From positions 63,124 to 127,123 of IMG/VR virus record IMGVR_UViG_3300046096_000179: 64,000 nt of DNA; one strand, written 5' to 3'. Source of the stretch: a virus (lineage: Duplodnaviria > Heunggongvirae > Uroviricota > Caudoviricetes). Position numbers and translations under genes: made by a program. This document shows positions 9,755 to 36,475 of this stretch, piece after piece (within the stretch, counting starts at the first letter, position 1; each line of letters opens with the position of its first letter). The notes under the pieces are model-generated. The model was not told where the DNA came from. It did not search any database and saw only the letters and a list, made by a program, of their open reading frames with translations.

Positions 9755-9755
9755 C

Positions 9756-14409: not shown

Positions 14410-14419
14410 CCCGATTGCA

Positions 14420-14463
14420 CGGCGGTTCCGTGCTACAATGTCATAACGAAGGAGTTTCAAAAC
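14420..14463 (+). promoter_or_regulatory. promoter-leader cassette variant (ccgtgctacaat)
   Basis: ccgtgctacaatgtcataacgaaggagtttcaaaacATG. Confidence 0.5.
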
Positions 14464-15786
14464 ATGACTATTAACCCAAAATCAATCGTATTCAATTGTG
14501 ACTCATATAAGGTTTCTATGTGGAAGCAGTATCCGCCCGGAACCGAGTATGTGTATTCCTATGTCGAGGCGCGTAAGGGCGGCCCCGTTCTGAATTTCGG
14601 TCTTCAGAAGACGATCATTGATCTGATCGACCAGAAGGTCACTACAGAAGATGTTCTTGCGGCAGAGAAGTTTTGGACCGCACATGGAGAACCGTTCAAC
14701 ACCGATGGCTGGCTCTATATCGCCAACGAACTTGGTGGTGTGCTGCCTCTGGAAATCCGTGGAATTGATGAGGGCATCGTTCTTCCATCCGGAACGCCTG
14801 TTGTCACCATCGTGAATACCGACCCAAAATGCTTCTGGCTCACCACATGGGTCGAAACTGCCATTCTGCGGGATGTGTGGTATGCATCTTCAGTTGCCAC
14901 CACATCATATAACATCCGACAAATGATCATGCAGTATCTGGACTACTCCGGCGACCCATCTGGAATTGATTTCAAATTGCATGACTTTGGATTTCGTGGG
15001 TCCAATTCATATGAATCATCGGAGATCGGCGGTGCGGCACACTTGATCAGCTTCATGGGGACCGATACCGTATCTGGTATCTTTGGTGCCGCAAAATATT
15101 ATGGTGCCGATATATATGCCACTGCATACTCTGTACCCGCTGCAGAACACAGCACAATTACGTCATGGGGGCGAGATAAAGAGTGTTTGGCATACGAAAA
15201 CATGATCAATCAGTTCTCCAAACCCGGCGCAATCTATGCCGTGGTTTCTGATTCATATGATATTTACAATGCCGTGGATAATTTGTGGGGTAAAGAACTT
15301 CGAGACCAGATTATCTCCACTGGCGGCACTCTGGTCATCAGGCCTGATTCGGCAGACCCCGTTGTTGTGCTCCCAAAATTGATCGCCTCGCTCGAAAAAT
15401 CATTCGGAGTGACCGTCAACGATAAGGGATACAAAGTGTTGAACAATGTTCGTCTGCTTTGGGGAGATGGCATCAATTTCATGTCCATTTCTTCTATCCT
15501 GCGCATGATCGTTGATGTGCTGGGATATTCTGCAGACAATATTGCTTTCGGTATGGGCGGTGCTCTCCATATGGGGGTTAACCGGGACACATATGGATTT
15601 GCCATGAAGGCATCTGCCGCCTATGTAAATGGGGAATGGGTTGACGTTTTCAAAGAACCTATCACCGATCCCGGAAAAAAGTCTAAGCGTGGTCGTTTTG
15701 ATGACCCTCGACTTAAACTGAGGTATCGCGATGGTGCTTTAGACAATTTGCAAAAATTCGATGAAGTTCGGGCAAATGCAAAATAA
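14464..15786 (+). CDS. nadV: nicotinamide phosphoribosyltransferase
   Basis: 440 aa; NAMPT-family signature (FNCDSYKVSMWKQYPPGTEYVYSY, DFGFRGSNSYESSEIGGAAHL). Confidence 0.9.
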   Translation: MTINPKSIVFNCDSYKVSMWKQYPPGTEYVYSYVEARKGGPVLNFGLQKTIIDLIDQKVTTEDVLAAEKFWTAHGEPFNTDGWLYIANELGGVLPLEIRGIDEGIVLPSGTPVVTIVNTDPKCFWLTTWVETAILRDVWYASSVATTSYNIRQMIMQYLDYSGDPSGIDFKLHDFGFRGSNSYESSEIGGAAHLISFMGTDTVSGIFGAAKYYGADIYATAYSVPAAEHSTITSWGRDKECLAYENMINQFSKPGAIYAVVSDSYDIYNAVDNLWGKELRDQIISTGGTLVIRPDSADPVVVLPKLIASLEKSFGVTVNDKGYKVLNNVRLLWGDGINFMSISSILRMIVDVLGYSADNIAFGMGGALHMGVNRDTYGFAMKASAAYVNGEWVDVFKEPITDPGKKSKRGRFDDPRLKLRYRDGALDNLQKFDEVRANAK

Positions 15787-18670: not shown

Positions 18671-18959
18671 TGCTGAAATTCTTAACATCAGCCAAGAAGA
18701 ATGTGCTGAGGTTATTGTGGCGATCTCCAAGATTCGCAGGTTTGGTCTGGATAGTGTTGATCCCAGAACAGACACCGGACAGACGAATCAAGATCATCTG
18801 GAGGAAGAAGTTGGAGACCTGATGGCAATGATTCGCCTGATGGAATTATCTGGTCTGATTCGGTTCGATAGGGTCGATACCGCAATGGAAGCCAAACTCA
18901 ACAAACTGAAGCTCTGGTCATCCATTGACAGGGAATTGCTGGATTATGCGAATAGCTGA
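18657..18959 (+). CDS. MazG-like nucleotide pyrophosphohydrolase (tentative)
   Basis: Small all-alpha protein with EExxEV...EEEVGDL acidic motifs. Confidence 0.4.
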   Translation: MNKSNAEILNISQEECAEVIVAISKIRRFGLDSVDPRTDTGQTNQDHLEEEVGDLMAMIRLMELSGLIRFDRVDTAMEAKLNKLKLWSSIDRELLDYANS

Positions 18960-19098
18960 CCTGCCAAAGATAACTAAACCACGGCGAGTGTTCAGTCGAA
19001 CAATATGGTATCCCGATATGCCATTCATCCAGACTTCTTTCATAATTGCTTGGCAAATCTCAGAGGTTCTTTCTGAAATCAACGATGGTTTTGAATGA
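18946..19098 (+). CDS. DLP-leader family small protein (MRIADLPKI...)
   Basis: Leader atgcgaatagctgacctgccaaagata; MazG-like stop TGA sits inside the leader. Confidence 0.45.
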   Translation: MRIADLPKITKPRRVFSRTIWYPDMPFIQTSFIIAWQISEVLSEINDGFE

Positions 19099-19249
19099 CT
19101 TACCGCGCATAAAGACTCCACACAAAAGAGTCTGGGGCGACATACTTTTTCTAACCAAAGGGTTTAGGTCTGAGTGGTACCAAGAAACAGGTGGTATGGT
19201 TTTGGATGTTGCTGAGGTGCTTGCTGAAATTTGCTATGATGTTGTCTGA
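19085..19249 (+). CDS. DLP-leader family small protein (MVLNDLPRI...)
   Basis: Leader variant. Confidence 0.45.
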   Translation: MVLNDLPRIKTPHKRVWGDILFLTKGFRSEWYQETGGMVLDVAEVLAEICYDVV

Positions 19250-19388
19250 CCTACCTAAGTTGAATGATACCAAACCGTTGTCATGCTTTCTTCTGATTAG
19301 ATTTGATCATGGGATTTACACGCATTTGAAGTTTGTTCGACAAGTGACATGGATGGCACGAAACATTGATGCTGCATTTGGATTATGA
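19236..19388 (+). CDS. DLP-leader family small protein (MMLSDLPKL...)
   Basis: Leader variant. Confidence 0.45.
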   Translation: MMLSDLPKLNDTKPLSCFLLIRFDHGIYTHLKFVRQVTWMARNIDAAFGL

Positions 19389-19573
19389 AGACTACTCACC
19401 TACCTAAGATCGACCCTGAGCAGTTTGAGCCACTGAATAAAAGTTGGTGGTCGCATAGATGGAGTGTATCCAACCCCATCATTCGTTTTCCGAGCATACT
19501 TGGGTTCTTCCTTGAACTCGCAAGAATGCGACAAACGATCCAAGACTCTATGGCTACAGTTAGAATTCCGTGA
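19385..19573 (+). CDS. DLP-leader family small protein (MKTTHLPKI...)
   Basis: Leader variant. Confidence 0.5.
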   Translation: MKTTHLPKIDPEQFEPLNKSWWSHRWSVSNPIIRFPSILGFFLELARMRQTIQDSMATVRIP

Positions 19574-19607
19574 TACAATAGAACCATCAACACGAGGAAC
19601 CTTCATC
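19561..19607 (+). promoter_or_regulatory. promoter-leader cassette
   Basis: ccgtgatacaatagaaccatcaacacgaggaaccttcatcATG. Confidence 0.55.
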
Positions 19608-20582
19608 ATGGGTGGAAATGCAATCAAATCAGCCAACCGAATCAACAAGCAGCAGTATGATGTTGCCGTGGATAAGTTGGAATCTATCCTGAATGGTAAT
19701 AGCATCATGAATGCTATCATCCCAGCTTACTTCAACAAGGAAACCTTTGGTGATATTGACGTGGTGATCGTTGAACCATTGACTGTCAATCAAGTCAAGG
19801 AGTTGTTCGGCGCAACAGAAATTGTCAAGAATTCCAATGTCATCTCCTTTGGTTTCAACGTCGAGGGTCTACCAACAATTCAAGTTGACTTGATCTACCA
19901 GTCAGAACAAACCTTTGAGTTTGCGGTTGCGTATTTCAGCTTCAATGACCTTGGCAATCTCATGGGTCGAATTTTTCACAAGATGGGAATGAAGTTCGGT
20001 CATGATGGTCTTTGGCTGCCAATAAGAGATGGTACAAATCAATTCCACGAGGTTCTTCTAACTCAAGACTTTGAGGAAGCACTTACGGTCGTTGGTCTGG
20101 ATTATGACCGCTGGTGTTATGGCTTTGCTGACCTGACCGACATCTTTGAGTTTGTTCGGTCATCCAAGTTCTTCAATTCTGACATCTATCTGCTTGATAA
20201 CCGGAATGCAATATCCAGAGTCCGTGACAGCAAGCGCAAGACTTACATGGAGTTCCTGAATTATAATGAGCAGAATCCATTGTCCCGATACACATTTGTA
20301 AAGGATAAGAGTTTCTATCTGCCGCTGATTTTCTCCTACTTCCCTGAAGCTGGCATGGAATACTTCACTGCCATGGAGGAACATCGAATGAAGATGGCCG
20401 CCAAGTTGATGTTCAACGGCGATCTGGTTCGGGACTGGACTGAACTTGAAGGTAAGTCATTGGGTGAATTTATGCGGGAACTCAAGGCAGCAAATCCCAG
20501 ACTCTGTGACTACAAGCTGGTCTTGGAGATGAGTGACGAGGAAATCAAGACAATGGTAATGACAACTTTTGGAGAGAAATGA
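19608..20582 (+). CDS. putative nucleotidyltransferase-fold protein
   Basis: GNS...(17)...FGDIDVVIVEP resembles the Pol-beta NTase G[GS]x(n)DhDh motif; 324 aa. Confidence 0.45.
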   Translation: MGGNAIKSANRINKQQYDVAVDKLESILNGNSIMNAIIPAYFNKETFGDIDVVIVEPLTVNQVKELFGATEIVKNSNVISFGFNVEGLPTIQVDLIYQSEQTFEFAVAYFSFNDLGNLMGRIFHKMGMKFGHDGLWLPIRDGTNQFHEVLLTQDFEEALTVVGLDYDRWCYGFADLTDIFEFVRSSKFFNSDIYLLDNRNAISRVRDSKRKTYMEFLNYNEQNPLSRYTFVKDKSFYLPLIFSYFPEAGMEYFTAMEEHRMKMAAKLMFNGDLVRDWTELEGKSLGEFMRELKAANPRLCDYKLVLEMSDEEIKTMVMTTFGEK

Positions 20583-21136
20583 TGAACCCATCGAAGGCAT
20601 TTGAATCGGCCAAGACAAACAAAGAGTATCTGGTGACTGCAGAGAAAGCGACGTGGGCATATCATTGGGATCGAAATGATCATCCGCATGCACATACGTT
20701 CCTTACCGGAAAGATTCTTCGGAATGAATTGTTTGATCACGTCACCGGAAAACAAGAACTGTCACCAAAGCGGATGTTTGAGGAACAGTGCACTGTATGT
20801 TGGCGCACTCGTTATGAGATTAGAAACGATTCTCTCGCGGGGCATTGTATTCCAATGGAATCTTTGAAACCAATTGAAGAAGTGATTCTTGCAGAGGAAG
20901 ATAAGTTCCTGTCGCTACTGAACTCCGCTGAGAACAGAATTCCGCAGTTGCTTGCAGAGAAGTTCAATGGAGTTCTTGATGCAGAGGCTCTGTTCTATCT
21001 GCAGTCAACTTCTGGGTTCCCGCCTGATGTGGTTGCGCTGCACTATGATGAGCGGGAGATTGAACGATTGATGCCTGAGTTCGACACACTGATGCAGTCC
21101 CATAAAGGTAAGTCGGGAAACTTCAGAAAGAAGTGA
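20579..21136 (+). CDS. hypothetical protein, ATGA-coupled to the NTase-fold gene
   Basis: 185 aa. Confidence 0.5.
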   Translation: MMNPSKAFESAKTNKEYLVTAEKATWAYHWDRNDHPHAHTFLTGKILRNELFDHVTGKQELSPKRMFEEQCTVCWRTRYEIRNDSLAGHCIPMESLKPIEEVILAEEDKFLSLLNSAENRIPQLLAEKFNGVLDAEALFYLQSTSGFPPDVVALHYDEREIERLMPEFDTLMQSHKGKSGNFRKK

Positions 21137-21204
21137 GACGGCGCTTAGTTGAACCGAGTCACGGTTTGGGCGCCTCGACAACAGTGATGTTTGTCTAAAA
21201 TTGA

Positions 21205-21263
21205 CTACATTCCAGAATATGTGATATAATTCAACCATCAACTCCACTACAAGGAACTACATC
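21205..21263 (+). promoter_or_regulatory. promoter-leader cassette
   Basis: atatgtgatataattcaaccatcaactccactacaaggaactacatcATG. Confidence 0.55.
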
Positions 21264-21605
21264 ATGAAATCCGTCATCAACATCATTCACCAACAAGATG
21301 GCTCCGTCACCTCTGAAATCTGTCAGGTTCCAGATGACTACATCCAATGCTCTGTGTCCGGCACATGGGTTCCAAAATCTGAGATGTGCGATTCCGATGG
21401 GAACATGATTCGCACAAATTCACTCTGTGTATCGAGTTTGTCGTATAATGAAAAGACTCACATTCGTAAAGCAACCGATGAATATAAGGCATCACCTAAG
21501 TATCATGAACAAACAGAAAAAATTAAGGCAATGCCATCATTACAAAACAGTTCATTTCTAAGTCAAGAATTTCTAAACGGACTGTTTTTATTTATATCAA
21601 TTTAA
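21264..21605 (+). CDS. hypothetical Cys-rich protein
   Basis: 113 aa. Confidence 0.5.
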   Translation: MKSVINIIHQQDGSVTSEICQVPDDYIQCSVSGTWVPKSEMCDSDGNMIRTNSLCVSSLSYNEKTHIRKATDEYKASPKYHEQTEKIKAMPSLQNSSFLSQEFLNGLFLFISI

Positions 21606-21707: not shown

Positions 21708-21887
21708 ATGAAAAATACTGACTTGCCCACAATACAAGCCCACCATGGTCATGTATATTGGGATGATTTGTGGGTGGTTATTCGGAAAACCGAACGAGTT
21801 TTTGATGGTCAGTTTGGTACCACAATTGGTGCATACGTATATCAACATTTGTTTTTAAACGTCAATAATCAACTATGCGACAGCTAA
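21708..21887 (+). CDS. DLP-leader family (MKNTDLPTI...)
   Basis: First member of the main array; preceded by hairpin ctatgttaaattcaacatag and a TATAAT-like box. Confidence 0.5.
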   Translation: MKNTDLPTIQAHHGHVYWDDLWVVIRKTERVFDGQFGTTIGAYVYQHLFLNVNNQLCDS

Positions 21888-21914
21888 ATATAGTTCGGTG
21901 TTCTTTTTCATACC

Positions 21915-22079
21915 ATGAAAACATCTGACTTCCCAAAAATCATCAAGCCGCCAACGACCCAACGACTTCTATCCGATGTGATGCAATGTGTTTTCACTTG
22001 TCTTAATGGTAAAATGTTCGTCACGGGACAGATGATCAGAGTTCCAATCATGCGTACATTCGATAGCATCAATAAATGA
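21915..22079 (+). CDS. DLP-leader family (MKTSDFPKI...)
   Basis: Below the track threshold; coordinates approximate. Confidence 0.45.
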   Translation: MKTSDFPKIIKPPTTQRLLSDVMQCVFTCLNGKMFVTGQMIRVPIMRTFDSINK

Positions 22080-22273
22080 AACTCAGAGACTTACCGATGG
22101 TTCCCAACACGGTGCATGATGGTCTGAATGGTTATCGAGTCAGCACAGATGTTTCTATTGGTGGTGCATGGAGAGGATATTCTTCTGCTACTATGAGTAA
22201 CGACGGATGTTGTGCTTTCTTAGTTATTGATGAGACATTTGAAATGATTTTTGACGATTATGAAAACTACTGA
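22076..22273 (+). CDS. DLP-leader family (MKLRDLPMV...)
   Basis: aaATGAaac overlap with the upstream stop. Confidence 0.5.
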   Translation: MKLRDLPMVPNTVHDGLNGYRVSTDVSIGGAWRGYSSATMSNDGCCAFLVIDETFEMIFDDYENY

Positions 22274-22463
22274 CCTACCATTAAACAATCACATTGATGT
22301 GTTGAGCACCGATGATTTGTGGGTGGTTGTTGGAATTGTTAAAGGTGCCGTAGGGCTTGCCACCAAAAGGTTTGCCACCAAAAGGTTTTGGTTAGACCCG
22401 GTTTACTTCAAACTGGGATTGCCCGTTAGAAATCAAATTTTTAACTTGGCGTCAAAAGAATGA
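22260..22463 (+). CDS. DLP-leader family (MKTTDLPLN...)
   Basis: Leader atgaaaactactgacctacca. Confidence 0.5.
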   Translation: MKTTDLPLNNHIDVLSTDDLWVVVGIVKGAVGLATKRFATKRFWLDPVYFKLGLPVRNQIFNLASKE

Positions 22464-22639
22464 AGACTACTGACTTACCTTTACAATATCGGATTGATGT
22501 ACGGATTCGGTGGGGTGTTTTTTTGCGTGTTGAATACGCCGCAGAGGATGTCACCCAAACGTCTATGTTTGAGCCGGTTTACTTAAAACTGATATTGCCT
22601 GTTAGAACTCAAATTTTGCAGTTAGCTCCAAAAGAATGA
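22460..22639 (+). CDS. DLP-leader family (MKTTDLPLQ...); body paralogous to the previous member (PVYFKLGLPVRNQIFNLA vs PVYLKLILPVRTQILQLA)
   Basis: ATGA overlap. Confidence 0.45.
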   Translation: MKTTDLPLQYRIDVRIRWGVFLRVEYAAEDVTQTSMFEPVYLKLILPVRTQILQLAPKE

Positions 22640-22800
22640 AGACGAGTGAGCTACCTAAAATCAACAAGTCACCACCGATCTATTATCAGATGGTTGGATT
22701 CATAGTGACTGTTGTTTCGATGAATGAAACAGGCAAACTTCCAATGATTCTTGTTGGCGTCCATGAAAACGATTGGGTGGTGGCTGTCTTGAGTTGTTAA
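22636..22800 (+). CDS. DLP-leader family (MKTSELPKI...), hydrophobic body
   Basis: ATGA overlap; approximate end. Confidence 0.4.
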   Translation: MKTSELPKINKSPPIYYQMVGFIVTVVSMNETGKLPMILVGVHENDWVVAVLSC

Positions 22801-23114
22801 TTTTTCTTTCTGGTGCTATAAGGAACCAAGTTTTCTGGGAGTGGACTGGAGAACCGAGATGGGTTGATTCGGTAGATGATTCCGGTCTTTGTGTCGATAT
22901 ACTTGTTGGCATTATGCGCCCGGATCGTGACATAACGACCTTTAATGACAGCATCCAGAGACTTCAATACGCCAATCAGGAAAACTTCATCGACGGTATC
23001 CCATATGTATTCAAAGCGATTAAAATTTCCTTGGAGAATTTCGTTGGTTATCTTAGTCTTCGCTTCTGCGAGCTTAAACCGACGCATCTTTTCCTTGGCG
23101 GCTTCAGTTTGCAT
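22797..23114 (-). pseudogene. remnant of the C-terminal domain of a GIY-YIG homing endonuclease (paralogue of 25646..26902)
   Basis: ITNEILQGNFNRFEYIWDTVDEVFLIGVLKSL matches ITNEILRGDFGRFEYLWDTVDEVFLIGVMKSL of the full gene; no GIY-YIG domain upstream. Confidence 0.5.
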
Positions 23115-23255
23115 TGGGTGGGATGATGATTCGTGCGTTGGGTAATCTGTGGTATAATGTCTTTACTTCAAAACAACGAGAGTATTTTGGGTATGACTAC
23201 GAGAATTTTAGTAAATCTATTGTAGATTTCAACGCTTAAATATTAGGAGTAAATA

Positions 23256-23441
23256 ATGAAAGAAGTCAGTTTTGATGTAATGTGTATTGACTCAGACGGA
23301 GTAGGATCATGGGAAGAAGTGATTTTAGACTCTGTACATGATGATCTAATGTTTGGCACTATTCGTCGCATTGGGAAACGGGTAAAATTCTGGGATAGTT
23401 CAGATGATTCTGAAGATGACTATACTGGTCTTATAATCTAA
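23256..23441 (+). CDS. hypothetical acidic small protein
   Basis: Good RBS attaggagtaaataATG; preceded by an extended -10 tctgTGgTATAATg near 23145. Confidence 0.45.
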   Translation: MKEVSFDVMCIDSDGVGSWEEVILDSVHDDLMFGTIRRIGKRVKFWDSSDDSEDDYTGLII

Positions 23442-23556
23442 ATTGTTTGAGGTACTATGAAAACAATCAAATTAATCTGGCATTACGTTCAATACTTACT
23501 GCTGCCTGTTGCGTTTATACAGCACTTGATTCCTTCTATGAAACAAGCGTTTAAAA

Positions 23557-24018
23557 ATGTCAGCTAGCTATGTTCTGTATAAGCAAGCAACACCAGAGCA
23601 AGCGCAGGCGTTTACAGCAGGTCAGGGCGTGAGGCTTGGTGCTTATGGTGACCCGGCGGCGATACCTAGGGCAGTGTGGGATAACATGCTATTGACTAAG
23701 GCATCATTCTGGACCGGTTACACGCATAACCTGAAGGTACAGCCCAGCATGGCGGATCTGTGCATGGTATCGGCAGATAGTCAACAGCAAAGCGCATCAG
23801 CCAAAGCACACGGGCGGCGAAGCTTCCGGGTTATACCCTTGACACAATGGCAAGCTAAAGGCAAAGCGTCAGTAGCATCTCACGAAATACTGTGCCCAGC
23901 TTCAGCAGAGGCAGGGGTGAGGGTTACGTGCGATAGTTGTAAGCTATGCAACGGGACGAAATCTAAGGGGAAATCTATTGCAATAATTGTGCATGGTCCG
24001 GGGGCAAAGTATGCATAA
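23557..24018 (+). CDS. hypothetical protein in a GC-rich island (possible foreign cassette)
   Basis: Local GC clearly above the phage average; Ala/Gly-rich; CDSCKLCNG. Confidence 0.5.
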   Translation: MSASYVLYKQATPEQAQAFTAGQGVRLGAYGDPAAIPRAVWDNMLLTKASFWTGYTHNLKVQPSMADLCMVSADSQQQSASAKAHGRRSFRVIPLTQWQAKGKASVASHEILCPASAEAGVRVTCDSCKLCNGTKSKGKSIAIIVHGPGAKYA

Positions 24019-24291
24019 TACATTGTTGCATAAATACAACAGTATAAAGCGGTGGTTACTTGCTGCGTTTATTGTAGCAGCATGCATGGCTTATCCGCTG
24101 GCTTTGCTGAGTGCATGATGCGGGTGCTGGCGTTTGTATAGCAAGACCGTTTGACCTGACGGTCGCACTAGCGTGAGATGATGCAAGGGTATAAAATAGA
24201 ACGATCGCGCTATTATTAGCGCTGGGAATATCTCGAATGGCTCTCTGAGGGTAACTTCAGGGGGCCTTTTCGCATGGACAATGTGCATATA

Positions 24292-24858
24292 TCAACGCAT
24301 AGAAACGCGCTGTGACAAGCGGTAGACCCCAATGCATACCCTAGCATCAACCAATGTTAAACGACGGCCCCTAGGGGCGTTTAAAGCGCTAGAAATGACG
24401 TCTGGGTTCTGTGTAGGATTATCATACCCAGTTTTGTTTCGGTAGTTTTCCGCTTTCTTATCAAGAAGCTCTTGGCTCTTTGATGGATGGTCAACATCAT
24501 AGACGTTGATCATTGCGGCGCGGAATGCATCCGTCCCATATGGCGTTATACTGGTATTGTTGTTCATGTTTAGCCACTCAGATGAAGTGGCGCAATCATT
24601 CTCAACTAAGAACTGGGTTTCGTAGTCATGAACATCACCAACTTCGTCTTTGGTTTTGATACTGATGACTCGGAAAGCAGCAAGACCTTCTTCCTCAATG
24701 ATTTTGTGAACGACCTTGGAACTGGTCTGGTATCCACCCGGTTGCATGAACTCTGATGGGTGACAGCCTTTAGCGTAACGACAACCGGCATATCGTTTGC
24801 CAGAAGCAACATGCTGAATGATGTAAAAATAAGGGACGTAAATAGGTTTGCTGGACAT
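24292..24858 (-). CDS. GIY-YIG homing endonuclease, shortened paralogue
   Basis: PIYVPYFYIIQHVASGKRYAGCRYAKG; after one repeat unit the C-terminus reads into GC-rich non-homologous sequence. Confidence 0.7.
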   Translation of the reverse strand: MSSKPIYVPYFYIIQHVASGKRYAGCRYAKGCHPSEFMQPGGYQTSSKVVHKIIEEEGLAAFRVISIKTKDEVGDVHDYETQFLVENDCATSSEWLNMNNNTSITPYGTDAFRAAMINVYDVDHPSKSQELLDKKAENYRNKTGYDNPTQNPDVISSALNAPRGRRLTLVDARVCIGVYRLSQRVSMR

Positions 24859-25044
24859 GCAGACTCCTTGTTTGTTTTAGAAGATGTTTAGAGGTAGCAG
24901 AGACTGCGAATCTCGTGGCTACCAACTTTATTTAGGGTTTCTTGATTTTGATGATAAAAAGTTGCGTTGTGGCCTAAAAGTTGTGATACAATACAGGCAT
25001 CGGACGTTGATTCGATTCAAACCTAACCATGAAGGACTAACCAA

Positions 25045-25671
25045 ATGTCAAATGAACTCACCCCATCGCAAGCAGCACTCATCCCACAGTACGTTTCGGA
25101 ATATGTGGCACACGGTTTCTACACCAGTTCCGGTACCCGTGAAGATGATGAACACATCGCTCGTGCAACCGAGCGCGCATACAAGAACGCTATTTCCCGC
25201 AAGCGCCACGATTCCATCACTAAGGTTCCGATGGTCGTGGTTGGTTCCATGAAGCAAGTCGTTCACATGATGAAGCAAACCATTCAAGGTGATGCCGACG
25301 CAATCAAATCCACGATTCAATCTGCTCGTCACAATGGTCAATTCCAAGCAGCAACTGATGCTCGATTCATGTTTCACTTGGAAGTTCTTGGGGTGGGTGG
25401 GGACGCGCTTGAATGGCATTGCGTATCTCCTTTGTACCGCAAGAACGGTGGGGTGTTTTTATTTCCTGAAATTTGTTTCTGCGTTCGTCCACCGATCCGT
25501 TTTGATGATGACTCTGACGGCAATCCCGTTCCGATCTGGAATGAAGAATCTGCGCCGACTGTTTATACACCTCAGAATCCAACTGACATCAACGATGTCA
25601 CGAAATACTCCGTTGAAGACATCGAAGACCTCCCCAACACCGTTGTCATTCAGGGAAAGAGCTTCCTTTAA
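25045..25671 (+). CDS. hypothetical protein
   Basis: Driven by ttgtgatacaatacaggca cassette variant between the two GIY-YIG genes. Confidence 0.55.
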   Translation: MSNELTPSQAALIPQYVSEYVAHGFYTSSGTREDDEHIARATERAYKNAISRKRHDSITKVPMVVVGSMKQVVHMMKQTIQGDADAIKSTIQSARHNGQFQAATDARFMFHLEVLGVGGDALEWHCVSPLYRKNGGVFLFPEICFCVRPPIRFDDDSDGNPVPIWNEESAPTVYTPQNPTDINDVTKYSVEDIEDLPNTVVIQGKSFL

Positions 25672-26902
25672 GCACAAAGTTAACGGGAAGGGGTTTGCTA
25701 AACATTGATTGGACTACGTAATACGTTTTGTTAGTCAAAACATCAACATACCCTTCCCTGCCAAGCTTCCCACTCTTGATGCTGATGTATCTCCCTTCCC
25801 CATATGTTCGGTTAAGGGATTTCATCACGCCAATAAGGAATACTTCATCTACGGTATCCCACAGATATTCAAATCGACCAAAATCACCTCGTAATATTTC
25901 GTTGGTGATTTTGTCTTCTGTGTTTTTATGTCTTGATGTCCGTATGCGATCAATGATGATTGGTGAGTGACTGGCGTTTTCTACGCCATATCTTTCTCTC
26001 ATCGTATCTTTGGCCTTCTCTCTAACTATCGGACACAGCAGTGCGGTTTCAACGCCACGGCTTTCCATATTGGTTTGCCTACTCTTGGCTTGAATCTCGG
26101 GAGACTTCATTTGATGATCGACCCCATATCGATCCATCAATGTTGATGTAGCTTTTGCTCTAACCACGGGACATTGTAGTACACTCCCAAATCCTCGTCG
26201 TTCCATGTTGGTCTGTTTGGTCTTTTCCCGGATTTCTTGTGCCTGCTGTGGAAATTCCGTTCCATATCTCTCAGTCATGGTCTGTCGGAATCTATCATGC
26301 GATTCTGGATTATGCATTGGATTTTCGACTCCATATCTATCATTCATGGTCTGTCGAACGGTTGCTTTAACTTCTTTGGCTTGCATTGGGTGGTCAACTC
26401 CCCATCTCTCTTGGCATGTTTTCTTAGCCATTTCCATGACTTCAGGTAACTGCAACGTGCAATCAACTCCATGACGAGCCTGATTTGTCTGTCTGATGGA
26501 TTCTATAAATGCTGGATGATGGGAGACGTTTTCGACGTCATATCGGTCTCTTAGGATGTTCTTAAATTCTTCCGAACCAAATGCGGGGCGTTTGTTGTTG
26601 TGCATATTGAACCACTCTGATGAAGCAGCACAATTATTCTCAACCAAGAAATTTGTCTCGTAGTCATGGACATTGCCAATTTCATCTATGGTCTTAATTT
26701 CGACCACGACAAATGCATCAATGCCTTCTTCCTTGATGATTTTCTTAATCTTCTTGGAACTGGTTTTGTAACCATCTTCGGTCATGAACTCTGATGGATG
26801 ACAGCCTTTGGCAAAGCGACAACCGGCATACTTCTTTCCAGAAGCAACATGCTGAATGACGTAAAAGTAAGGGACGTGCGGATAAATAGGTTTGCTGGAC
26901 AT
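25646..26902 (-). CDS. GIY-YIG homing endonuclease with seven tandem ~33-aa repeats
   Basis: PIYPHVPYFYVIQHVASGKKYAGCRFAKG; repeats of the form ...R(Y/W)GV(E/D)(N/H)PM..PE(V/I)..K... Confidence 0.8.
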   Translation of the reverse strand: MSSKPIYPHVPYFYVIQHVASGKKYAGCRFAKGCHPSEFMTEDGYKTSSKKIKKIIKEEGIDAFVVVEIKTIDEIGNVHDYETNFLVENNCAASSEWFNMHNNKRPAFGSEEFKNILRDRYDVENVSHHPAFIESIRQTNQARHGVDCTLQLPEVMEMAKKTCQERWGVDHPMQAKEVKATVRQTMNDRYGVENPMHNPESHDRFRQTMTERYGTEFPQQAQEIREKTKQTNMERRGFGSVLQCPVVRAKATSTLMDRYGVDHQMKSPEIQAKSRQTNMESRGVETALLCPIVREKAKDTMRERYGVENASHSPIIIDRIRTSRHKNTEDKITNEILRGDFGRFEYLWDTVDEVFLIGVMKSLNRTYGEGRYISIKSGKLGREGYVDVLTNKTYYVVQSMFSKPLPVNFVLKGSSFPE

Positions 26903-27078
26903 GCAGACTCCTTGTTTGTGTTAAGAATGTTTAGAGGTAGTGGGAACGCCAATTCCGCGACTACCAACTTTATTTAGGGGTTCTGGATTTTTGATGATAA
27001 ACTGTGATACAATACATACATGAACAATCAACACTCAACCAACAATACTGGCGTCATCCCCGGTAAGTCTGAACTCTG

Positions 27079-27261
27079 ATGCAAATAGAAAATCTACCCA
27101 CGATCCAAGAATGCTATACATCCGTAAGTGTTGGGTTGTGGGTAGTTCTTCGAGAAACAATTTTCAGCATGTCGGACGCCAACACGGTAGACTCTTTGGA
27201 TGACCCGTTGTATGTTGCGGTTGCTAGTGACGTCGATTGGGTGTTTAATGAAAACTACTGA
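27079..27261 (+). CDS. DLP-leader family (MQIENLPTI...)
   Basis: Downstream of the aactgtgatacaatacatac cassette. Confidence 0.45.
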   Translation: MQIENLPTIQECYTSVSVGLWVVLRETIFSMSDANTVDSLDDPLYVAVASDVDWVFNENY

Positions 27262-27415
27262 CCTTCCTGTTTTGGCACCAATTGTCTCTGGTGTATTGAA
27301 GGCTGATGCGTGGCATCATATCATCTGGGTATCAATGACCTCTACACCATGGGATAATCTTGGGAAGAAGGTGCGCGCTTCTCTGATTAAATTGATGCCG
27401 TATGATATCTTCTAA
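27248..27415 (+). CDS. DLP-leader family (MKTTDLPVL...)
   Basis: Leader. Confidence 0.5.
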   Translation: MKTTDLPVLAPIVSGVLKADAWHHIIWVSMTSTPWDNLGKKVRASLIKLMPYDIF

Positions 27416-27584
27416 TCTTCCACAAATCAAACTGCCACACGCCATGAACTGGTATGTACATCAAATGGATGCCGCAACAAGCGTGATGATGTTGAAATCC
27501 ATCAAGATTTGGGATGCTGTATACCAACAAGTTGATTGGGCTGTCTCTGACCATTTGTGGAGATTGACCGATGAAAACATCTGA
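27402..27584 (+). CDS. DLP-leader family (MISSNLPQI...)
   Basis: Leader variant. Confidence 0.5.
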   Translation: MISSNLPQIKLPHAMNWYVHQMDAATSVMMLKSIKIWDAVYQQVDWAVSDHLWRLTDENI

Positions 27585-27753
27585 CCTGCCACAAATCAGA
27601 TCATCCTACGGTGAAGTCTTTGGCGTTGGATTATGGGCAGTTCTTAGAAAAGTTGCTTCTGAAACTGACCTGTATATTGCAGCAGAAGAACGACCATGTG
27701 TTGTTGATGTAAATGTTGATCGGATTTTGTGGAATATTTACTACTTGTTATGA
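27571..27753 (+). CDS. DLP-leader family (MKTSDLPQI...)
   Basis: Upstream stop lies in accgATGAaaacatcTGA. Confidence 0.5.
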   Translation: MKTSDLPQIRSSYGEVFGVGLWAVLRKVASETDLYIAAEERPCVVDVNVDRILWNIYYLL

Positions 27754-27827
27754 AAACATCTGAATTATCAAAAAATCCAACTAAAACCAAGTCCTCTGAA
27801 CTTGTCATGGAGAGTAATCATTGGTAA
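27750..27827 (+). CDS. DLP-leader family, very short (MKTSELSKNPTKTKSSELVMESNHW)
   Basis: Approximate coordinates; may be a decayed member. Confidence 0.3.
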   Translation: MKTSELSKNPTKTKSSELVMESNHW

Positions 27828-27913
27828 TTCCTTTCCGTGGGGATTGGCTATAATAAAAGGTATTGATGCGGATGACTCGGGGTGGCAAGTTCTGAAACGA
27901 TTGGTTGGTAAAA

Positions 27914-28033
27914 ATGAAAATCTCTGACATACCGAAAATTGACCATGTGTTGTATAATACATGCGCCGCTTCTTGGTATGCCGGTGATATGGACGGCGCA
28001 TCATACGAGATGGTAAAAATAATCAAGATTTGA
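27914..28033 (+). CDS. DLP-leader family (MKISDIPKI...)
   Basis: Approximate coordinates. Confidence 0.35.
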   Translation: MKISDIPKIDHVLYNTCAASWYAGDMDGASYEMVKIIKI

Positions 28034-28101
28034 AATTTTGGTTACCAGCAAGTGGATTGGGCTGTCTCCGAGCATCTGTGGTATATTAGAGTTGATTGAA
28101 T

Positions 28102-28266
28102 ATGAAAACATCTGACCTGCCGAAAATCCAAGTTGAGAGCCAGAGTATTTTGAGCGTGTCGTGGAAAGCAATCATACCATGTCTGCCGTGGTCGAACGAT
28201 CCGTCAAATATGCGGCCGGACGTTCATTGTCACCTACGTTGGTTGATTAAGCATGAAAACCTCTGA
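28102..28266 (+). CDS. DLP-leader family (MKTSDLPKIQVE...)
   Basis: Stops at the TGA inside the next member's TCTGAC. Confidence 0.45.
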   Translation: MKTSDLPKIQVESQSILSVSWKAIIPCLPWSNDPSNMRPDVHCHLRWLIKHENL

Positions 28267-28456
28267 CCTACAATACATACAGAACATAGATAATGGTTAC
28301 TTGGATGACGCACCGTCGGACACTTACTTTGCAGTAGTCGAAGACTCCACATTATTTGGATACCAATCCCCTTACCTATGGGACTTGGTTGACGCAATTG
28401 ACGATCCATTATTTAAAATCGAAATTCACATCTATGACACCTACCATGATCAATAA
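28253..28456 (+). CDS. DLP-leader family (MKTSDLQYI...)
   Basis: Leader. Confidence 0.5.
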   Translation: MKTSDLQYIQNIDNGYLDDAPSDTYFAVVEDSTLFGYQSPYLWDLVDAIDDPLFKIEIHIYDTYHDQ

Positions 28457-28943
28457 ACTGACTCCATATTTCACCCCACTAGGAATTGACGTCTCCAAGG
28501 TTCCATTCCATGACGGTTTTGCTGGCTCGATTTATGTCGGACAGTTTCCCTATGCAGGTAAGAATCGTCAAGGTGAACTGACATTCCTTGACTATCCAGT
28601 AGATGTCTTCTATCAACCGAATCCCAAGGTTGAACTGGGGCATTCCCATTACTTCTCGGTCTATACTCGTCATGGTCATTCCTATGTCAGCGATGCATCC
28701 TATGTCACTGACCTAAGGCTTAATGGCGTTGTTGACTCCACTGGCAATATCCTGTATGCTAGGTTCCAGCATGACTTCCGATATACCAATGACGGTAATG
28801 CCGGGGTTGATGGTGGTGGATGGATGAAAGATGGTGATGTCTGGAGTATGTGGGGTCGCACCATTGGTGATAAGGATGGAAACTTCCCCAAGATGGTTCT
28901 GCTCCGTGTTGTTGATGGAAAGCTGGTGCAGGATGAAACTTAA
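28434..28943 (+). CDS. hypothetical protein (about 169 aa) embedded in the array, without the leader
   Basis: Track ORF 28356..28943; first plausible ATG (MTPTMINKL) lies at the end of the preceding member. Confidence 0.45.
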   Translation: MTPTMINKLTPYFTPLGIDVSKVPFHDGFAGSIYVGQFPYAGKNRQGELTFLDYPVDVFYQPNPKVELGHSHYFSVYTRHGHSYVSDASYVTDLRLNGVVDSTGNILYARFQHDFRYTNDGNAGVDGGGWMKDGDVWSMWGRTIGDKDGNFPKMVLLRVVDGKLVQDET

Positions 28944-29131
28944 ACAGCTATCGGTCATTGAACCATCAATGTCGTTTGTCAACATCAAAAAAAGAGTTGA
29001 CTCCATCTCCGGTAGGAGAGGGTTTGATTATGTTTCAAGGTCTTACCTATGGGTTGACATGATCAACGCGGATTTTGGTAGAGAACTTTTTACGGCGGTT
29101 CATTCGGCATTCAGTGGGTGCGTCCGTGGAA

Positions 29132-29302
29132 TTGAGTGAACTGCCGAAGTCTCATCAGTTAGCGGCGAGATTTGATGTAATTAGTCGCCCACTCGCTGGC
29201 GGCATTTTAAGCGCGATCATGGAGAATGAGCATAATGTATGGCGATGGGTGCGTTATCCGGTGCAGCAAGTTCTTGAACGGGTAAATGATGAAATCTTCT
29301 GA
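29132..29302 (+). CDS. DLP-leader family, TTG-start variant ((M)SELPKSHQ...)
   Basis: ttgagtgaactgccgaag matches the minus-strand TTG variant at 50357. Confidence 0.4.
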   Translation: MSELPKSHQLAARFDVISRPLAGGILSAIMENEHNVWRWVRYPVQQVLERVNDEIF

Positions 29303-29483
29303 CCTACCGAAAATACCAATCCCAAGAACCGGGTGGAATGTCTGTTTTGATGCGCATGTTTCGATGAATGACGCATTGGATGAATCATCTGGGATTGAGG
29401 TGCAGTCCGAAGTGATTAACAAAATCGCGTTTCCGGTCTTGGGTATCATGCGCCGGATTTGTGCCAGTACACCGAGTTCTTGA
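29286..29483 (+). CDS. DLP-leader family (MMKSSDLPKI...)
   Basis: Leader. Confidence 0.5.
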   Translation: MMKSSDLPKIPIPRTGWNVCFDAHVSMNDALDESSGIEVQSEVINKIAFPVLGIMRRICASTPSS

Positions 29484-29491
29484 ACGAGTGA

Positions 29492-29692
29492 ATGATGAAA
29501 TCTTCTGACCTGCCAACCATTGCTGTCCCTATCACGAACTTCCATGTTGTTCATGATGTATCAATCCTGTTTGGTGATTTTCTTGGTTTCGCCGAGTACG
29601 AAACATTTGATAAAATCAGAACGCCTGTGATGAATTCTTTGATTCCAACACTTTTTTCCATGGAACTCGAATTTTTAAGTTATAAAATATAA
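29492..29692 (+). CDS. DLP-leader family (MMKSSDLPTI...)
   Basis: Leader. Confidence 0.5.
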   Translation: MMKSSDLPTIAVPITNFHVVHDVSILFGDFLGFAEYETFDKIRTPVMNSLIPTLFSMELEFLSYKI

Positions 29693-29694
29693 CC

Positions 29695-30129
29695 ATGAAC
29701 CAACCCTACATTCAAAATGTTTCACGTCAGGCTCTTGCAACCGGTCAGCACCTCAGACCCAGTGACAATACAATTCTGATTCAGATTGCCGACTGTATTC
29801 AGGGATGCCCTACTCCAACACCCAACAATACCTTCGTTGAAATCCATCAGTTCAACTTCATGGACTCTGAGGAAGATGACCCAATGTTCCCACCAGAGGC
29901 AAAGATCACCACAGAACAAGCCAAGGAAATTGTTGGCATCCTTCGGAATGCATTGGCTAAAAATCAGAACGTGATTGTCCATTGCAATGCCGGTCTTTGT
30001 CGGTCAGGTGCTGTTGCTGAGGTTGGTGTCATGATGGGATTCACGGATACCTTTGCCACTAGGATTCCAAACCTGATGGTCAAGAAGTATCTGATGCGAG
30101 AACTTGGCTGGCTTTATGAAGATCGATGA
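29695..30129 (+). CDS. Cys-based protein phosphatase (dual-specificity/PTP-like, CX5R)
   Basis: VHCNAGLCRSGAV active-site P-loop. Confidence 0.7.
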   Translation: MNQPYIQNVSRQALATGQHLRPSDNTILIQIADCIQGCPTPTPNNTFVEIHQFNFMDSEEDDPMFPPEAKITTEQAKEIVGILRNALAKNQNVIVHCNAGLCRSGAVAEVGVMMGFTDTFATRIPNLMVKKYLMRELGWLYEDR

Positions 30130-30268
30130 CTTACCAAAGATTCACTTGAGTGAATGCAAAGACCTTGCACATTTGATTCGACTCCCACATGGAACATCTT
30201 CAATTGTGATGACTGTCAGCATGCGATGGTCGTTTAAAATCAATCATGCTCTTGGGTTTCGGTTGTGA
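30116..30268 (+). CDS. DLP-leader family (MKIDDLPKI...)
   Basis: Overlaps the phosphatase stop; approximate. Confidence 0.4.
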   Translation: MKIDDLPKIHLSECKDLAHLIRLPHGTSSIVMTVSMRWSFKINHALGFRL

Positions 30269-30447
30269 AAACCTATGAACTACCAAAAATCAATGCAAAA
30301 GACTGGAGCGTCGTAGAATTCTCCGTTACCTTTCTTGGAGGTCATGTTGGAGTTTCTGACTCTGGAGCGAAGCTAAAGACTTACAAAATCACCAATGAAG
30401 TTCACCAAAATTTCGGCGAAATTGTTAGAAACCTGTGGATTCTGTGA
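30265..30447 (+). CDS. DLP-leader family (GTG start; (M)KTYELPKI...)
   Basis: Leader; last member of the array. Confidence 0.45.
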   Translation: MKTYELPKINAKDWSVVEFSVTFLGGHVGVSDSGAKLKTYKITNEVHQNFGEIVRNLWIL

Positions 30448-32938: not shown

Positions 32939-33751
32939 ATGATCATGAACATCCTAATCGGCTCCAGAGCCATGAACTATTGGACTGGCGAACCATCCAA
33001 GGATTCTGCAGATTGGGATGTCATTTCGGTCGATCCAATTGATGGAACCGAACACCATCCGGTTGACTTCCTGAATAACCACAGGTTCGTCGATTACGCA
33101 TCTGAGCATACGGTTGCATTCAATGGTAATATCCTGCACGTATGCAATCCAGTGGGTCTGGCGATTATCAAACGCTCCCATCTGCACCGAGGCCTGAGTT
33201 TCGCCAAGCACATCACCCACTACCACAGGAAGCTGATGCCGCTTGTTGGTAAGTTCAGTCCAGAGGATATGCCGATATTGGGTGAGCGAACTCAGTTGAC
33301 CAAGGAACAGTTCCCATTCAACCACCCAAAGTTGGATGTGACGGTTTCCGAGTTCTTCGACGACTTCGTGATCAAGAAATATGACCATGATGCAATCCAT
33401 CGGGTTGTAGCATTCAATGATGCTCCAATGTACACCAAGATGCAACCCAACCCAGAGATGGCATGGTGTGCCAAGGATATGTGGGATGAGTTCAGCGACA
33501 TGGAGAAACGCCAGTGTGTGGCAGAGGAAGCTCTGGTTATTTCAATTGAGCGATTCTTGGTTCCGAGCAATTGGAAGAAGTCTTATCGACTGTCATACAT
33601 GAAGTCCTTGGAGAAGGTCTGCACGACACTCTGCTCTGGGTGGTTCCGTGATTATGCGATTGACAACTACCCAGCAATCGCTGACTTGTTCGATTCTGCG
33701 GATTTTGGTGAATTTAAAGAAAAGATTTTGACTACAGTTCTGGAACTGTGA
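32939..33751 (+). CDS. hypothetical protein, possible nucleotidyltransferase fold
   Basis: LIGSRAMNYWTGEPSKDSADWDVI fits hG[GS]x(n)DhDh loosely. Confidence 0.35.
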   Translation: MIMNILIGSRAMNYWTGEPSKDSADWDVISVDPIDGTEHHPVDFLNNHRFVDYASEHTVAFNGNILHVCNPVGLAIIKRSHLHRGLSFAKHITHYHRKLMPLVGKFSPEDMPILGERTQLTKEQFPFNHPKLDVTVSEFFDDFVIKKYDHDAIHRVVAFNDAPMYTKMQPNPEMAWCAKDMWDEFSDMEKRQCVAEEALVISIERFLVPSNWKKSYRLSYMKSLEKVCTTLCSGWFRDYAIDNYPAIADLFDSADFGEFKEKILTTVLEL

Positions 33752-33791
33752 TATAATAAGAACCATCAACTCCACTACAAGGAACTACATC
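33731..33791 (+). promoter_or_regulatory. promoter-leader cassette
   Basis: actacagttctggaactgtgatataataagaaccatcaactccactacaaggaactacatcATG. Confidence 0.6.
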
Positions 33792-34250
33792 ATGACCAAC
33801 CGTAACTATGAATTTGTAACAGACGACACCATCGTTATTAATGGGGTGACATTGACTCGTATTCGGGCGATTAAATATATACCCCACCATAGGGCAACAG
33901 ATGGTGAGCTTGGTGGCTATATCGAAAAATATGAAAATTTAACAGAAAACTCATGGGTTTCTGGTAATGCCCGTGTTTCTGGTAATGCATGTGTCTATGG
34001 CGATGCCCGTGTTTCTGGTAATGATAATGTCAAATCGACATCAGATTACATCACCATCGGTCCAGCAAAATCTTCTGGTCGGTACATAACCGCATTTGTT
34101 GATTATAAAATCGGAGTTAAGATTGTGACGGGTGATTTTACTGGTTCTATTAATGAATTCAAGTCAGCTATTGAATCCACACACCAAAACAATGAGCAGA
34201 ATTTGAAACAATATCGCGCATTTGTTTTCTTAATTGAAGCCTCATTCTGA
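33792..34250 (+). CDS. hypothetical protein with tandem SGNARV hexapeptide repeats
   Basis: WVSGNARVSGNACVYGDARVSGND. Confidence 0.55.
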   Translation: MTNRNYEFVTDDTIVINGVTLTRIRAIKYIPHHRATDGELGGYIEKYENLTENSWVSGNARVSGNACVYGDARVSGNDNVKSTSDYITIGPAKSSGRYITAFVDYKIGVKIVTGDFTGSINEFKSAIESTHQNNEQNLKQYRAFVFLIEASF

Positions 34251-35611: not shown

Positions 35612-35849
35612 CGAAATCAAGAGACTTGAGGGCATTGTTTTCGATAACGAGAACTCTTTTCTGCAAAACTTCAGTCCTGTTGGGTCAACATCTGATTTGC
35701 TTGGGATCTGGTTCGGTTCATCGTCCGTGAAAATCCACTACGTCGATCTGGATTCTGGGCAACACTATGCAGATGAGATTGAAAATGAAAAATTTTCTGC
35801 ATGGATGAAATCAAGGATTGACTACAGTTCCTATTCTGTGATACAATAG
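35604..35849 (+). CDS. hypothetical protein
   Basis: Start MIDEIKRLEG overlaps the upstream stop (ATGATTGA). Confidence 0.45.
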   Translation: MIDEIKRLEGIVFDNENSFLQNFSPVGSTSDLLGIWFGSSSVKIHYVDLDSGQHYADEIENEKFSAWMKSRIDYSSYSVIQ

Positions 35850-35881
35850 AACCATCGAAACAAACCAAGGAAACCTAGATC
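35821..35881 (+). promoter_or_regulatory. promoter-leader cassette
   Basis: actacagttcctattctgtgatacaatagaaccatcgaaacaaaccaaggaaacctagatcATG. Confidence 0.55.
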
Positions 35882-36058
35882 ATGACACAATTCAAGTTTT
35901 ACGTGCACTTCATTGACAAACATGGCGTTGAAGATGTTGCTGATGTATGGTCAACTGAGACGGAAGAATTGAATATTGCAGCGGATTTTTACTCTGAATA
36001 TGGTGACGATTTGAACATCACACAAATCGAGCCAACCGGCGTAATTTCTCAATTTTAA
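35882..36058 (+). CDS. hypothetical small acidic protein (58 aa)
   Basis: Directly after the cassette; below the track threshold; approximate. Confidence 0.4.
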   Translation: MTQFKFYVHFIDKHGVEDVADVWSTETEELNIAADFYSEYGDDLNITQIEPTGVISQF

Positions 36059-36466: not shown

Positions 36467-36475
36467 AATAAAATT

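Follow-up and report, generated by a model that had tools for sequence, protein, structure and literature searches.

What does one short leader do at the start of some thirty small proteins whose bodies are otherwise unrelated? The question is raised by the window analysed here, a stretch of 64,000 nucleotides (nt) of viral DNA (IMG/VR record IMGVR_UViG_3300046096_000179, positions 63,124 to 127,123) from a T4-type phage that is very divergent and only distantly related to T4 itself. Six-frame scans revealed 30 open reading frames (ORFs) of 25–72 aa starting with M-[K/R]-x-[S/T]-[D/E]-L-P-[K]-I, of which 19 lie in an array at 21708–30447, five at 8.9 and 19 kb on the plus strand, and six at 49.7–51.2 kb on the minus strand; intact copies have 49–72 aa, with about 57 aa being typical. 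An earlier note on this DNA had put the array at about 19 tandem genes and the window at about 31 members, which agrees with our counts of exactly 19 and of 30, and its coordinates were also correct. Allowing up to three mismatches, the leader consensus matched four times in the window and never in shuffled sequences, a loose codon pattern matched 33 times against 6.1 ± 2.3 expected from Markov-1 simulations, and a repeat finder run independently returned a family of 14 copies of 28 nt.

We propose, with a probability of about 0.5, that these ORFs are lineage-specific, mostly translationally chained mini-protein genes with a composite leader, which would act as gene junction, peptide tag and recombination joint at once. 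The same 26 bases start a gene, stop the previous one in either frame, encode a selected motif and coincide with breakpoints. Phage variable regions are rich in tiny orphan genes of obscure logic; here, a single family, whose design can be read, takes up about 8% of a 64-kb stretch.

The Leader as a Junction between Genes

Leader statistics refer to 44 non-redundant members, taken from the window and from related contigs. In their nucleotide logo, the conserved stretch runs from precisely the A of the ATG to nt 26, and the 30 nt upstream of the ATG stay below 0.3 bit per position. The strongest nucleotide signal, a stop codon for the upstream gene that had been overlooked before, is built around a T at nt 12, which is present in 89% of the copies though residue 4 varies between S, T, N, Y, D, A, and G; Ser is encoded by TCT or AGT in 25 of 26 cases and Thr by ACT in all six (p<1e-3). 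Together with G13-A14 or A13-A14, this T forms TGA or TAA in the +2 frame, and in 70% of the copies the start itself reads ATGA, giving a TGA at nt 2–4 in the +1 frame.

The longest upstream open frame ends within nt 2–14 of the leader in 37 of the 44 copies, being at least 40 codons long in 34 of them; 23 end at nt 12–14, nine at ATGA and five at other stops of the +1 frame. By comparison, 13 of 50 other genes of the window overlap their upstream ORF, only one of them at nt 12–14. The genes that end in leaders are either members or ordinary genes, for example a phosphatase gene (leader at 30116), a hydroxylase gene (50517) and a 184-aa gene (8867). Where the upstream gene uses the ATGA stop, T12 is nevertheless retained in eight of nine members; the leader therefore seems built to terminate either alternative frame. 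Recurrent C-termini of the type ...ENI, ...ENY, and ...ENL arise because ATGAAAACNTCTGA is read in the +2 frame, and the embedded stop suggests that D, E or N at position 5 is partly forced.

In translationally coupled overlapping genes, too, the upstream gene stops within the next start or beside it, and a Shine–Dalgarno (SD) motif is often missing; SD-like motifs precede 12 of 44 members as against 28 of 50 other genes. Compared with coupled genes of the ATGA type, the dominant overlap of the leader is an unusual, fixed one of 14 nt with the stop at nt 12–14, and stops for both alternative frames are provided, which means that cassettes can be joined in any order. The other synonymous biases come down to an avoidance of G (AAA over AAG, CTA/TTA over CTG/TTG, GAA over GAG) in a leader of 38% A and 13% G, and predicted folding is weaker in windows around the start than in the bodies (−4.4 versus −7.2 kcal/mol, p=2e-6).

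Read directly from the sequence, the leader is a stop-restart junction. It provides an AUG, a UGA at nt 2–4 and a UGA or UAA at nt 12–14, so that an upstream gene in any frame would terminate at most 14 nt from the next start. The junction is A-rich, G-poor, weakly structured and usually free of an SD motif; we infer that ribosomes finishing there would re-initiate on the next ORF, at the AUG 11 nt upstream. For the construction of polycistronic cassettes, such a junction would offer a natural plug that is independent of frame.

The Leader as a Selected Peptide

A second layer of conservation concerns the peptide. Third codon positions 9, 15, 18, 21, and 27 of the leader are only weakly conserved, and L6 and P7 are kept in more than 90% of the copies. 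Six codons are used for L6, four for P7 and three for I9, and Ser4 draws on TCT and AGT, two codon families that are not connected; this codon diversity argues for selection on the amino acids and shows an N-terminal peptide motif under such selection. The previous claim of conservation at the DNA level therefore holds for nt 12 and for the avoidance of G, but most third positions are free. As also supposed before, the leader is a real, selected tag of non-hydrophobic character: residues 10–15 are polar and rich in Pro, their hydrophobic fraction being 0.12–0.33, and no Sec, Tat or lipoprotein signal peptide was recognised.

Behind the leader, the bodies are essentially unrelated, in line with the first description of the array. 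Their mean pairwise identity is 20.5%, as compared to 19.1% in shuffled controls and to 46% between leaders, and 2.9% of the body pairs exceed the 99th percentile of the controls. The few subfamilies include 22260, 22460 and P0005; 27079, 27571 and 21708, with LWVV in common; and 27402 and 27914. Profile searches of Pfam, PHROGs, PADLOC, and PDB with members found no relative, and the isoelectric points (pI) span 4.1–10.4. An N-anchored profile nonetheless reveals a layout of leader (residues 1–9), polar Pro-rich stretch (10–15) and hydrophobic Trp-rich segment (16–24, holding 15 of the tryptophans), with Trp enriched 2.8-fold over large proteins. AlphaFold, applied to a 14-sequence subfamily alignment, gave a model of low confidence (pLDDT 51).

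Under the composite reading, protein-level selection keeps S/T4, L6, P7, K8, and I9 as a tag, and the tag, the polar Pro-rich linker and the hydrophobic Trp-rich segment would form an exposed N-terminal arm that may dock differing mini-proteins onto one common partner of the host or the phage. If so, one pathway would be fed by about 30 orphan proteins. A bolder version, which we regard as unlikely, makes the nonapeptide a new addressing tag, distinct from the capsid-targeting sequence (CTS) of T4. Through this tag, dozens of interchangeable modules of 50 aa would enter a single pathway (for instance virion loading, a host hub protein, a protease or a hydroxylase), and its coding sequence would double as a frame-independent stop-restart and recombination joint.

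Members of the Family and Their Status as Genes

The members of the window are given below; three of them start with GTG.

8867–9052, plus strand: 61 aa, MVVGELPKI; the upstream 184-aa ORF ends at leader nt 12–14
9039–9254, plus strand: 71 aa, MRVSELPVT
18946–19098, plus strand: 50 aa, MRIADLPKI
19085–19249, plus strand: 54 aa, MVLNDLPRI (P0014)
19236–19388, plus strand: 50 aa, MMLSDLPKL
21708–21887, plus strand: 59 aa, MKNTDLPTI (P0008), first of the array
21915–22079, plus strand: 54 aa, MKTSDFPKI
22076–22273, plus strand: 65 aa, MKLRDLPMV; ATGA overlap with the preceding member
22260–22463, plus strand: 67 aa, MKTTDLPLN, paralog of P0005
22460–22639, plus strand: 59 aa, MKTTDLPLQ
22636–22800, plus strand: 54 aa, MKTSELPKI (P0016)
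27079–27261, plus strand: 60 aa, MQIENLPTI; ortholog in relative L148 frameshifted
27248–27415, plus strand: 55 aa, MKTTDLPVL; homology to L148 ends just past the leader
27402–27584, plus strand: 60 aa, MISSNLPQI (P0001); TAA at nt 12–14
27571–27753, plus strand: 60 aa, MKTSDLPQI
27750–27827, plus strand: 25 aa, frameshifted; intact 61-aa version in relative L135 (L135:6397)
27914–28033, plus strand: 39 aa, MKISDIPKI, truncated/frameshifted paralog of 27402; repeat D5
28102–28266, plus strand: 54 aa, MKTSDLPKI, the exact consensus
28253–28456, plus strand: 67 aa, MKTSDLQYI; P at position 7 in orthologs
29126–29302, plus strand: 58 aa, (M)ELSELPKS, GTG start
29289–29483, plus strand: 64 aa, MKSSDLPKI; repeat D6
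29495–29692, plus strand: 65 aa, MKSSDLPTI (P0018)
30116–30268, plus strand: 50 aa, MKIDDLPKI; the phosphatase gene ends at leader nt 12–14
30265–30447, plus strand: 60 aa, (M)KTYELPKI, GTG start
51064–51228, minus strand: 54 aa, MRVSDLPSN (P0006)
50350–50517, minus strand: 55 aa, MKTSEIPKI; ATGA overlap with the Asp/Arg-hydroxylase-like gene
50205–50363, minus strand: 52 aa, (M)KLSELPKI, GTG start
50030–50194, minus strand: 54 aa, MRISDLPKI
49894–50043, minus strand: 49 aa, MKTSELPKI
49727–49903, minus strand: 58 aa, MRVNDLPRI

By the following measures, the members are real genes that are individually dispensable and evolve under relaxed purifying selection, with birth and death of copies. 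An initiation codon is present in all 44 (41 ATG, three GTG), the codon-position composition matches that of other phage genes with a purine-rich first position (G1 = 0.30), and the amino-acid composition lies at a distance of 0.077 from that of the window's other small genes, as against 0.118 from a random translation. For the ortholog pair 28253 and L148:1178, dS is 0.68 and dN/dS 0.24; the flanking 208-aa and 165-aa genes show dN/dS of 0.10 and 0.08 at similar dS, and three near-identical strain pairs, pooled, gave a pN/pS of about 0.5 based on very few changes. It is the invariant start, the gene-like composition and this dN/dS of 0.24 that lead us to consider the genes real. Leader conservation is periodic in steps of three bases and the member ORFs tile the DNA, which is not what a non-coding tandem repeat or a CRISPR-like array displays. 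Decay is visible as well, with 27750 being the frameshifted form of an intact 61-aa gene in L135, 27914 being truncated, and the L148 ortholog of 27079 carrying the same frameshift in two independent assemblies.

Some further ORFs recall the leader. A 68-aa ORF at 28933–29139 (plus strand), MKLKQLSVIEP, overlaps the end of the 165-aa gene and keeps the spacing M-K-x-x-x-L-x-x-I, so it may be a degenerate member. Out of register, a D/N-Y-P-K-I motif is found in a 165-aa ORF with TTG start at 12389–12886 (plus strand), which begins MSRDYPKIADIE, and in a 93-aa ORF at 51671 (minus strand), which begins MNYPKI. Leader-like N-termini of larger proteins (12389, 51671, 56196) were rejected as relatives, their number of matches being equal to chance expectation.

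Distribution and Turnover

When 1.84 billion representative proteins were searched with a profile, proteins of this lineage and three repeat artefacts were all that came up, and a word-indexed search had the same outcome. Scans of IMG/VR with exact and degenerate leader DNA gave chance single matches and one multi-leader contig, namely a related contig of 34 kb, and a scan of a metagenome collection for the tandem-leader pattern found only 21-nt satellite repeats. Within the limits of detection, which covers members with matching bodies or lying in arrays, the family is specific to this phage lineage.

Comparison with relatives places changes in gene content at leaders. Homology with L148 (dS ~0.7) includes the ortholog of 27079, breaks off directly behind the 27248 leader and is found again precisely from the 28253 ATG on; the segment in between holds five and a half members in the window and two unrelated members in L148. 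Relative L135 is 99.6% identical to the window up to the 27914 leader, the body that follows is diverged, and identity is 95.8% from the 28253 ATG onward; this change of identity at the 28253 ATG indicates a population-level recombination junction at a leader. Duplicated units (e.g., 22373–22480/22549–22656 and 29258–29323/29464–29529) run from leader to leader, with the junction included. A few cases thus support the leader as a joint at which cassettes may be swapped, gained or lost between genomes, with near-identical leaders marking the points of exchange.

In the hyperplastic regions of T4-type phages, modular shuffling is mediated by promoter-early stem-loop (PeSL) cassettes (PMC2839356, PMC4122927). 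Like leaders, PeSLs are short conserved repeats between small variable ORFs at which indels and replacements begin and end, and in our comparisons with L148 and L135 breakpoints fall on the 27248 and 28253 leaders, though in few cases. PeSLs are, however, intergenic elements with an early promoter and a stem-loop terminator, whereas the leader is coding, begins with the ATG and lacks conserved sequence in front of it. A better analogue is a cassette of about 70 nt with 12 copies in the window (see below).

Competing Explanations

The internal proteins of T4 are diverse and defence-related, and only the CTS MKTYQEFIAE, which is removed by the prohead protease, is common to them (PMC3012670, PMC8442874). 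In the T4 genes that we read, ipII and ipIII start ATGAAAACATATCAAGAATTTATTGCCGAA and ipI encodes MKTFKEF..., and each gene has its own promoter resembling GTTTAC...TATAAT and a AAAGGAAA ribosome site before the ATG. As an internal control, we used the sole canonical CTS decapeptide of the window, MKTYKEFLNE, which belongs to an ORF outside the family:

12285–12353, plus strand: 22-codon ORF MKTYKEFLNEMAQNIGTHHSLN, non-member

This decapeptide is identical to the CTS of an 82-aa gene at the internal-protein locus of Klebsiella phage Metamorpho, located directly after the endolysin and NudE genes, which is the position of T4 ipIII and ipII; the neighbour of that gene starts MKTYQEFLAE. The 12285 ORF does not vary between 10 strain contigs; it represents a decayed internal-protein gene or else a mini "internal peptide". 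Its presence means that the T4-type address label is conserved in the lineage and distinct from the MKTSDLPKI leader. That the canonical capsid tag of T4 persists unchanged in so distant a relative is informative about head assembly.

A CTS-like tag for capsid targeting and processing, with some 30 mini-proteins loaded into the prohead and injected as anti-defence effectors, was the analogy drawn in the earlier note. A tag on diverse small bodies is indeed the architecture of T-even internal proteins (PMC3012670), which are likewise diverse, fast-evolving and small, bear a tag of about 10 aa and lie in variable regions of the T4-type genome; sizes of 49–72 aa form a narrow range that should permit passage through the tail. 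The first 10 nt of the leader, ATGAAAACAT, equal those of ipII and ipIII, and the 12285 ORF overlaps its upstream gene by 14 nt with a TAA at nt 12–14, a geometry that hints at a common origin of its 5' end and the family leaders. Beyond M-K-T and these 10 nt there is nothing further in common, however, and no family member has the T4-like decapeptide M-K-T-[Y/F]-[Q/K]-E-F-[I/L/T]-x-E, the true CTS being found elsewhere in the same genome. Sites for the prohead protease, [L/I]-x-E, occur scattered within the first 30 aa of 10 of 44 members, as compared to 11.5 ± 2.3 in shuffled sequences; members lack their own promoter and SD motif, show no conservation in front of the ATG and overlap the ORF before them, unlike the T4 ip genes; the broad range of pI gives no common charge character; and internal proteins come in 3–5 copies, not in about 30 chained by overlapping stops and starts. 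We consider this explanation quite unlikely. The specific analogy to packaged or injected effectors is thus left without support, but the more general proposal of a common N-terminal tag on unrelated small proteins stood up, the tag being real and selected.

The leader might also have no peptide function at all, being merely an optimal module for stop-restart and early elongation on proteins that share no function. T12 and the avoidance of G at synonymous sites would fit such a module, as would AAA at codon 2 in 77% of the copies (37% in large genes), the weak RNA structure around the start, and [D/E/N]5 being forced by TGA or TAA. This would still leave L6, P7, and I9, kept through many codons, and Ser4, kept through two families, as signs of amino-acid selection; the other coupled genes of the window do without a leader peptide, and known N-terminal "ramp" effects concern codons 3–5 and not an invariant Leu-Pro at 6–7. 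We therefore think this account unlikely too. Far less probable is a mark for the substrates of a phage enzyme, in the manner of ribosomally synthesised and post-translationally modified peptides, with an Asp/Arg-hydroxylase-like cupin as candidate acting on D/N5 or P7. The gene of this cupin sits between members 51228 and 50517 and overlaps the latter by ATGA, and hypervariable bodies behind a conserved leader are reminiscent of a precursor library: precursor peptides such as the prochlorosins have many paralogs with conserved N-terminus and unrelated C-terminal parts, like the family here. But the leader, with only 9 aa, is far shorter than theirs, the bodies of about 50 aa look like folded mini-proteins, and E occupies position 5 in 15 of 44 copies; the PF05118-type hydroxylase family is known to act on Asp and Asn, not on Glu. 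Moreover, only one of four arrays lies near the hydroxylase gene, and neither a recognition domain nor another maturation gene was recognised in the window. Least likely of all, with hardly any weight, is a relic of recent tandem duplication without selection, a possibility that had been raised before. Clear recent duplicates exist (22260/22460, 27402/27914, and 29289/29495), but most bodies are at shuffled identity and yet more than 90% of the copies keep L6 and P7, the synonymous sites of the leader, e.g., nt 9 and nt 27, are largely randomised, and copies occupy four separate loci on both strands. On these comparisons, recent duplication alone is excluded as an explanation.

Several points weigh against the composite leader that we prefer. 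SD-duplex energies do not differ significantly from those of other genes (p=0.23), and coupling by overlap is generally common in this phage. Asp5 is encoded by GAC in 22 of 25 leaders, a bias of which the model gives no account. The "exposed arm" comes from sequence profiles, the AlphaFold model being of low confidence, and the docking partner is purely something that we infer. Breakpoints at leaders are few, with three clean boundaries, and would also be expected if whole genes were the surviving units of gain and loss. Finally, the existence of frameshifted members means that individual copies are dispensable.

The phage in general prefers GAT (64%), and with GAC at codon 5 of the leader the embedded UGA is followed immediately by a C; this choice follows neither from the stop codon nor from the avoidance of G. 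RF2-like +1 frameshifting at xxU-GAC was rejected, since the codon preceding the stop is neither slippery nor conserved and the ATG is invariant.

Other Genes in and around the Arrays

The array had been described as interrupted only by homing-endonuclease genes, one GC-rich cassette and two larger genes. We find more interruptions than that: on the minus strand, three ORFs or remnants of the GIY-YIG type; a DUF7227-like gene of 153 aa, whose GC content (0.45–0.49) is only modestly higher; genes of 208, 165, and 144 aa; and a few small non-family ORFs. The 144-aa gene (29695–30129, plus strand) is dual-specificity phosphatase-like, and its stop is the TGA at nt 12–14 of the 30116 leader. In the minus-strand array, the Asp/Arg beta-hydroxylase-like cupin gene (PF05118, phrog_32420) is embedded at 50514–51038 (minus strand).

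Two of the endonuclease genes, 24292–24858 (188 aa) and 25646–26902 (418 aa), both on the minus strand, are SegE-like with GIY-YIG/DUF7487 and have segments about 78% identical; the third ORF, 22797–23114 (minus strand), is a C-terminal remnant. The 418-aa gene is missing in L148, where the 208-aa gene adjoins the array directly.

The operon running into the 21708 array is headed by a cassette of promoter, 5' untranslated region (5'UTR) and ribosome-binding site:

21197–21267, plus strand: TTGACT-18-TATAAT ... AAGGAACTACATC-ATG

The general form of this cassette of about 70 nt is ATTGACTACAGTT...TGTGATACAAT-AGAACCATCGAAACAA...AAGGAAACTACATC-ATG, i.e., promoter, conserved 5'UTR and ribosome site before stand-alone genes. 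Besides the copy above, it is found at 9414–9494, 9749–9818, 10486–10559, 19551–19610, 33723–33795, and 35816–35895 on the plus strand and at 47790–47863, 52030–52107, 53799–53871, 54448–54516, and 56480–56555 on the minus strand. It is likely the counterpart of T4 early promoters or PeSLs. Between the window and the related contigs L004 and L001, one homology breakpoint lies at the 3' end of a cassette. Promoter-like sites were not enriched in 18–32 kb (17 versus 28 expected). Leaderless transcription of 21708 was considered and rejected, as the TTGACG/TATAAT pair there has an 11-nt spacer and the promoter scan made no call; likewise, the missing T4 late promoter TATAAATA was discarded as a sign of early-only expression, since the tail and baseplate genes of the window are also without this motif.

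The Phage and Further Genes of the Window

The window encodes a family B DNA polymerase, a T4-type RNase H, a DnaB-like helicase, a gp2-like DNA-end protector, tail-tube and baseplate proteins, and an NAMPT plus NMNAT/Nudix pair. Among 50,697 phage records, the best identity to the RNase H was 34%, and that to the RNase H of T4-like phages is about 32–34%. A megablast search with the window found no near-identical phage record, and a search of IMG/VR for related loci by means of the RNase H gave no match; relatives, near-identical or moderately diverged, are contigs only, from one JGI metagenome group and a few SRA runs. For the gene at the right end, too, no record was found.

The C-terminus of the DNA polymerase (1100–1262, plus strand) reads ...EKQPDPEFLFG, which we take to resemble the clamp-binding tail of T4 gp43 (SLDFLFG). 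A clamp-binding motif was rejected for the leader, which is unlike this ...PEFLFG tail.

Adjoining the minus-strand array, on the strand opposite to its neighbours, is a complete gene of the TnpB/IS605 OrfB type (48470–49720, plus strand) with helix-turn-helix, OrfB and Cas12f-like TNB domains. Its closest bacterial and archaeal relatives are merely 32–38% identical, and with a top identity of 38% the host could not be inferred from it. A tRNA-Met (CAT) at 36475–36549 (plus strand) is the sole RNA family detected in the window with Rfam. The 185-aa ORF at 20579–21136 (plus strand) weakly matches the middle of class II alanyl-tRNA synthetase (PF01411, positions 344–428) and is a fragment-sized homolog of this enzyme. 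The NAD salvage pair (13429–15786, plus strand) consists of a bifunctional NMNAT/Nudix protein of 326 aa and an NAMPT of 440 aa, with the top phage match, to Acidovorax phage ACP17, being 58% identical.

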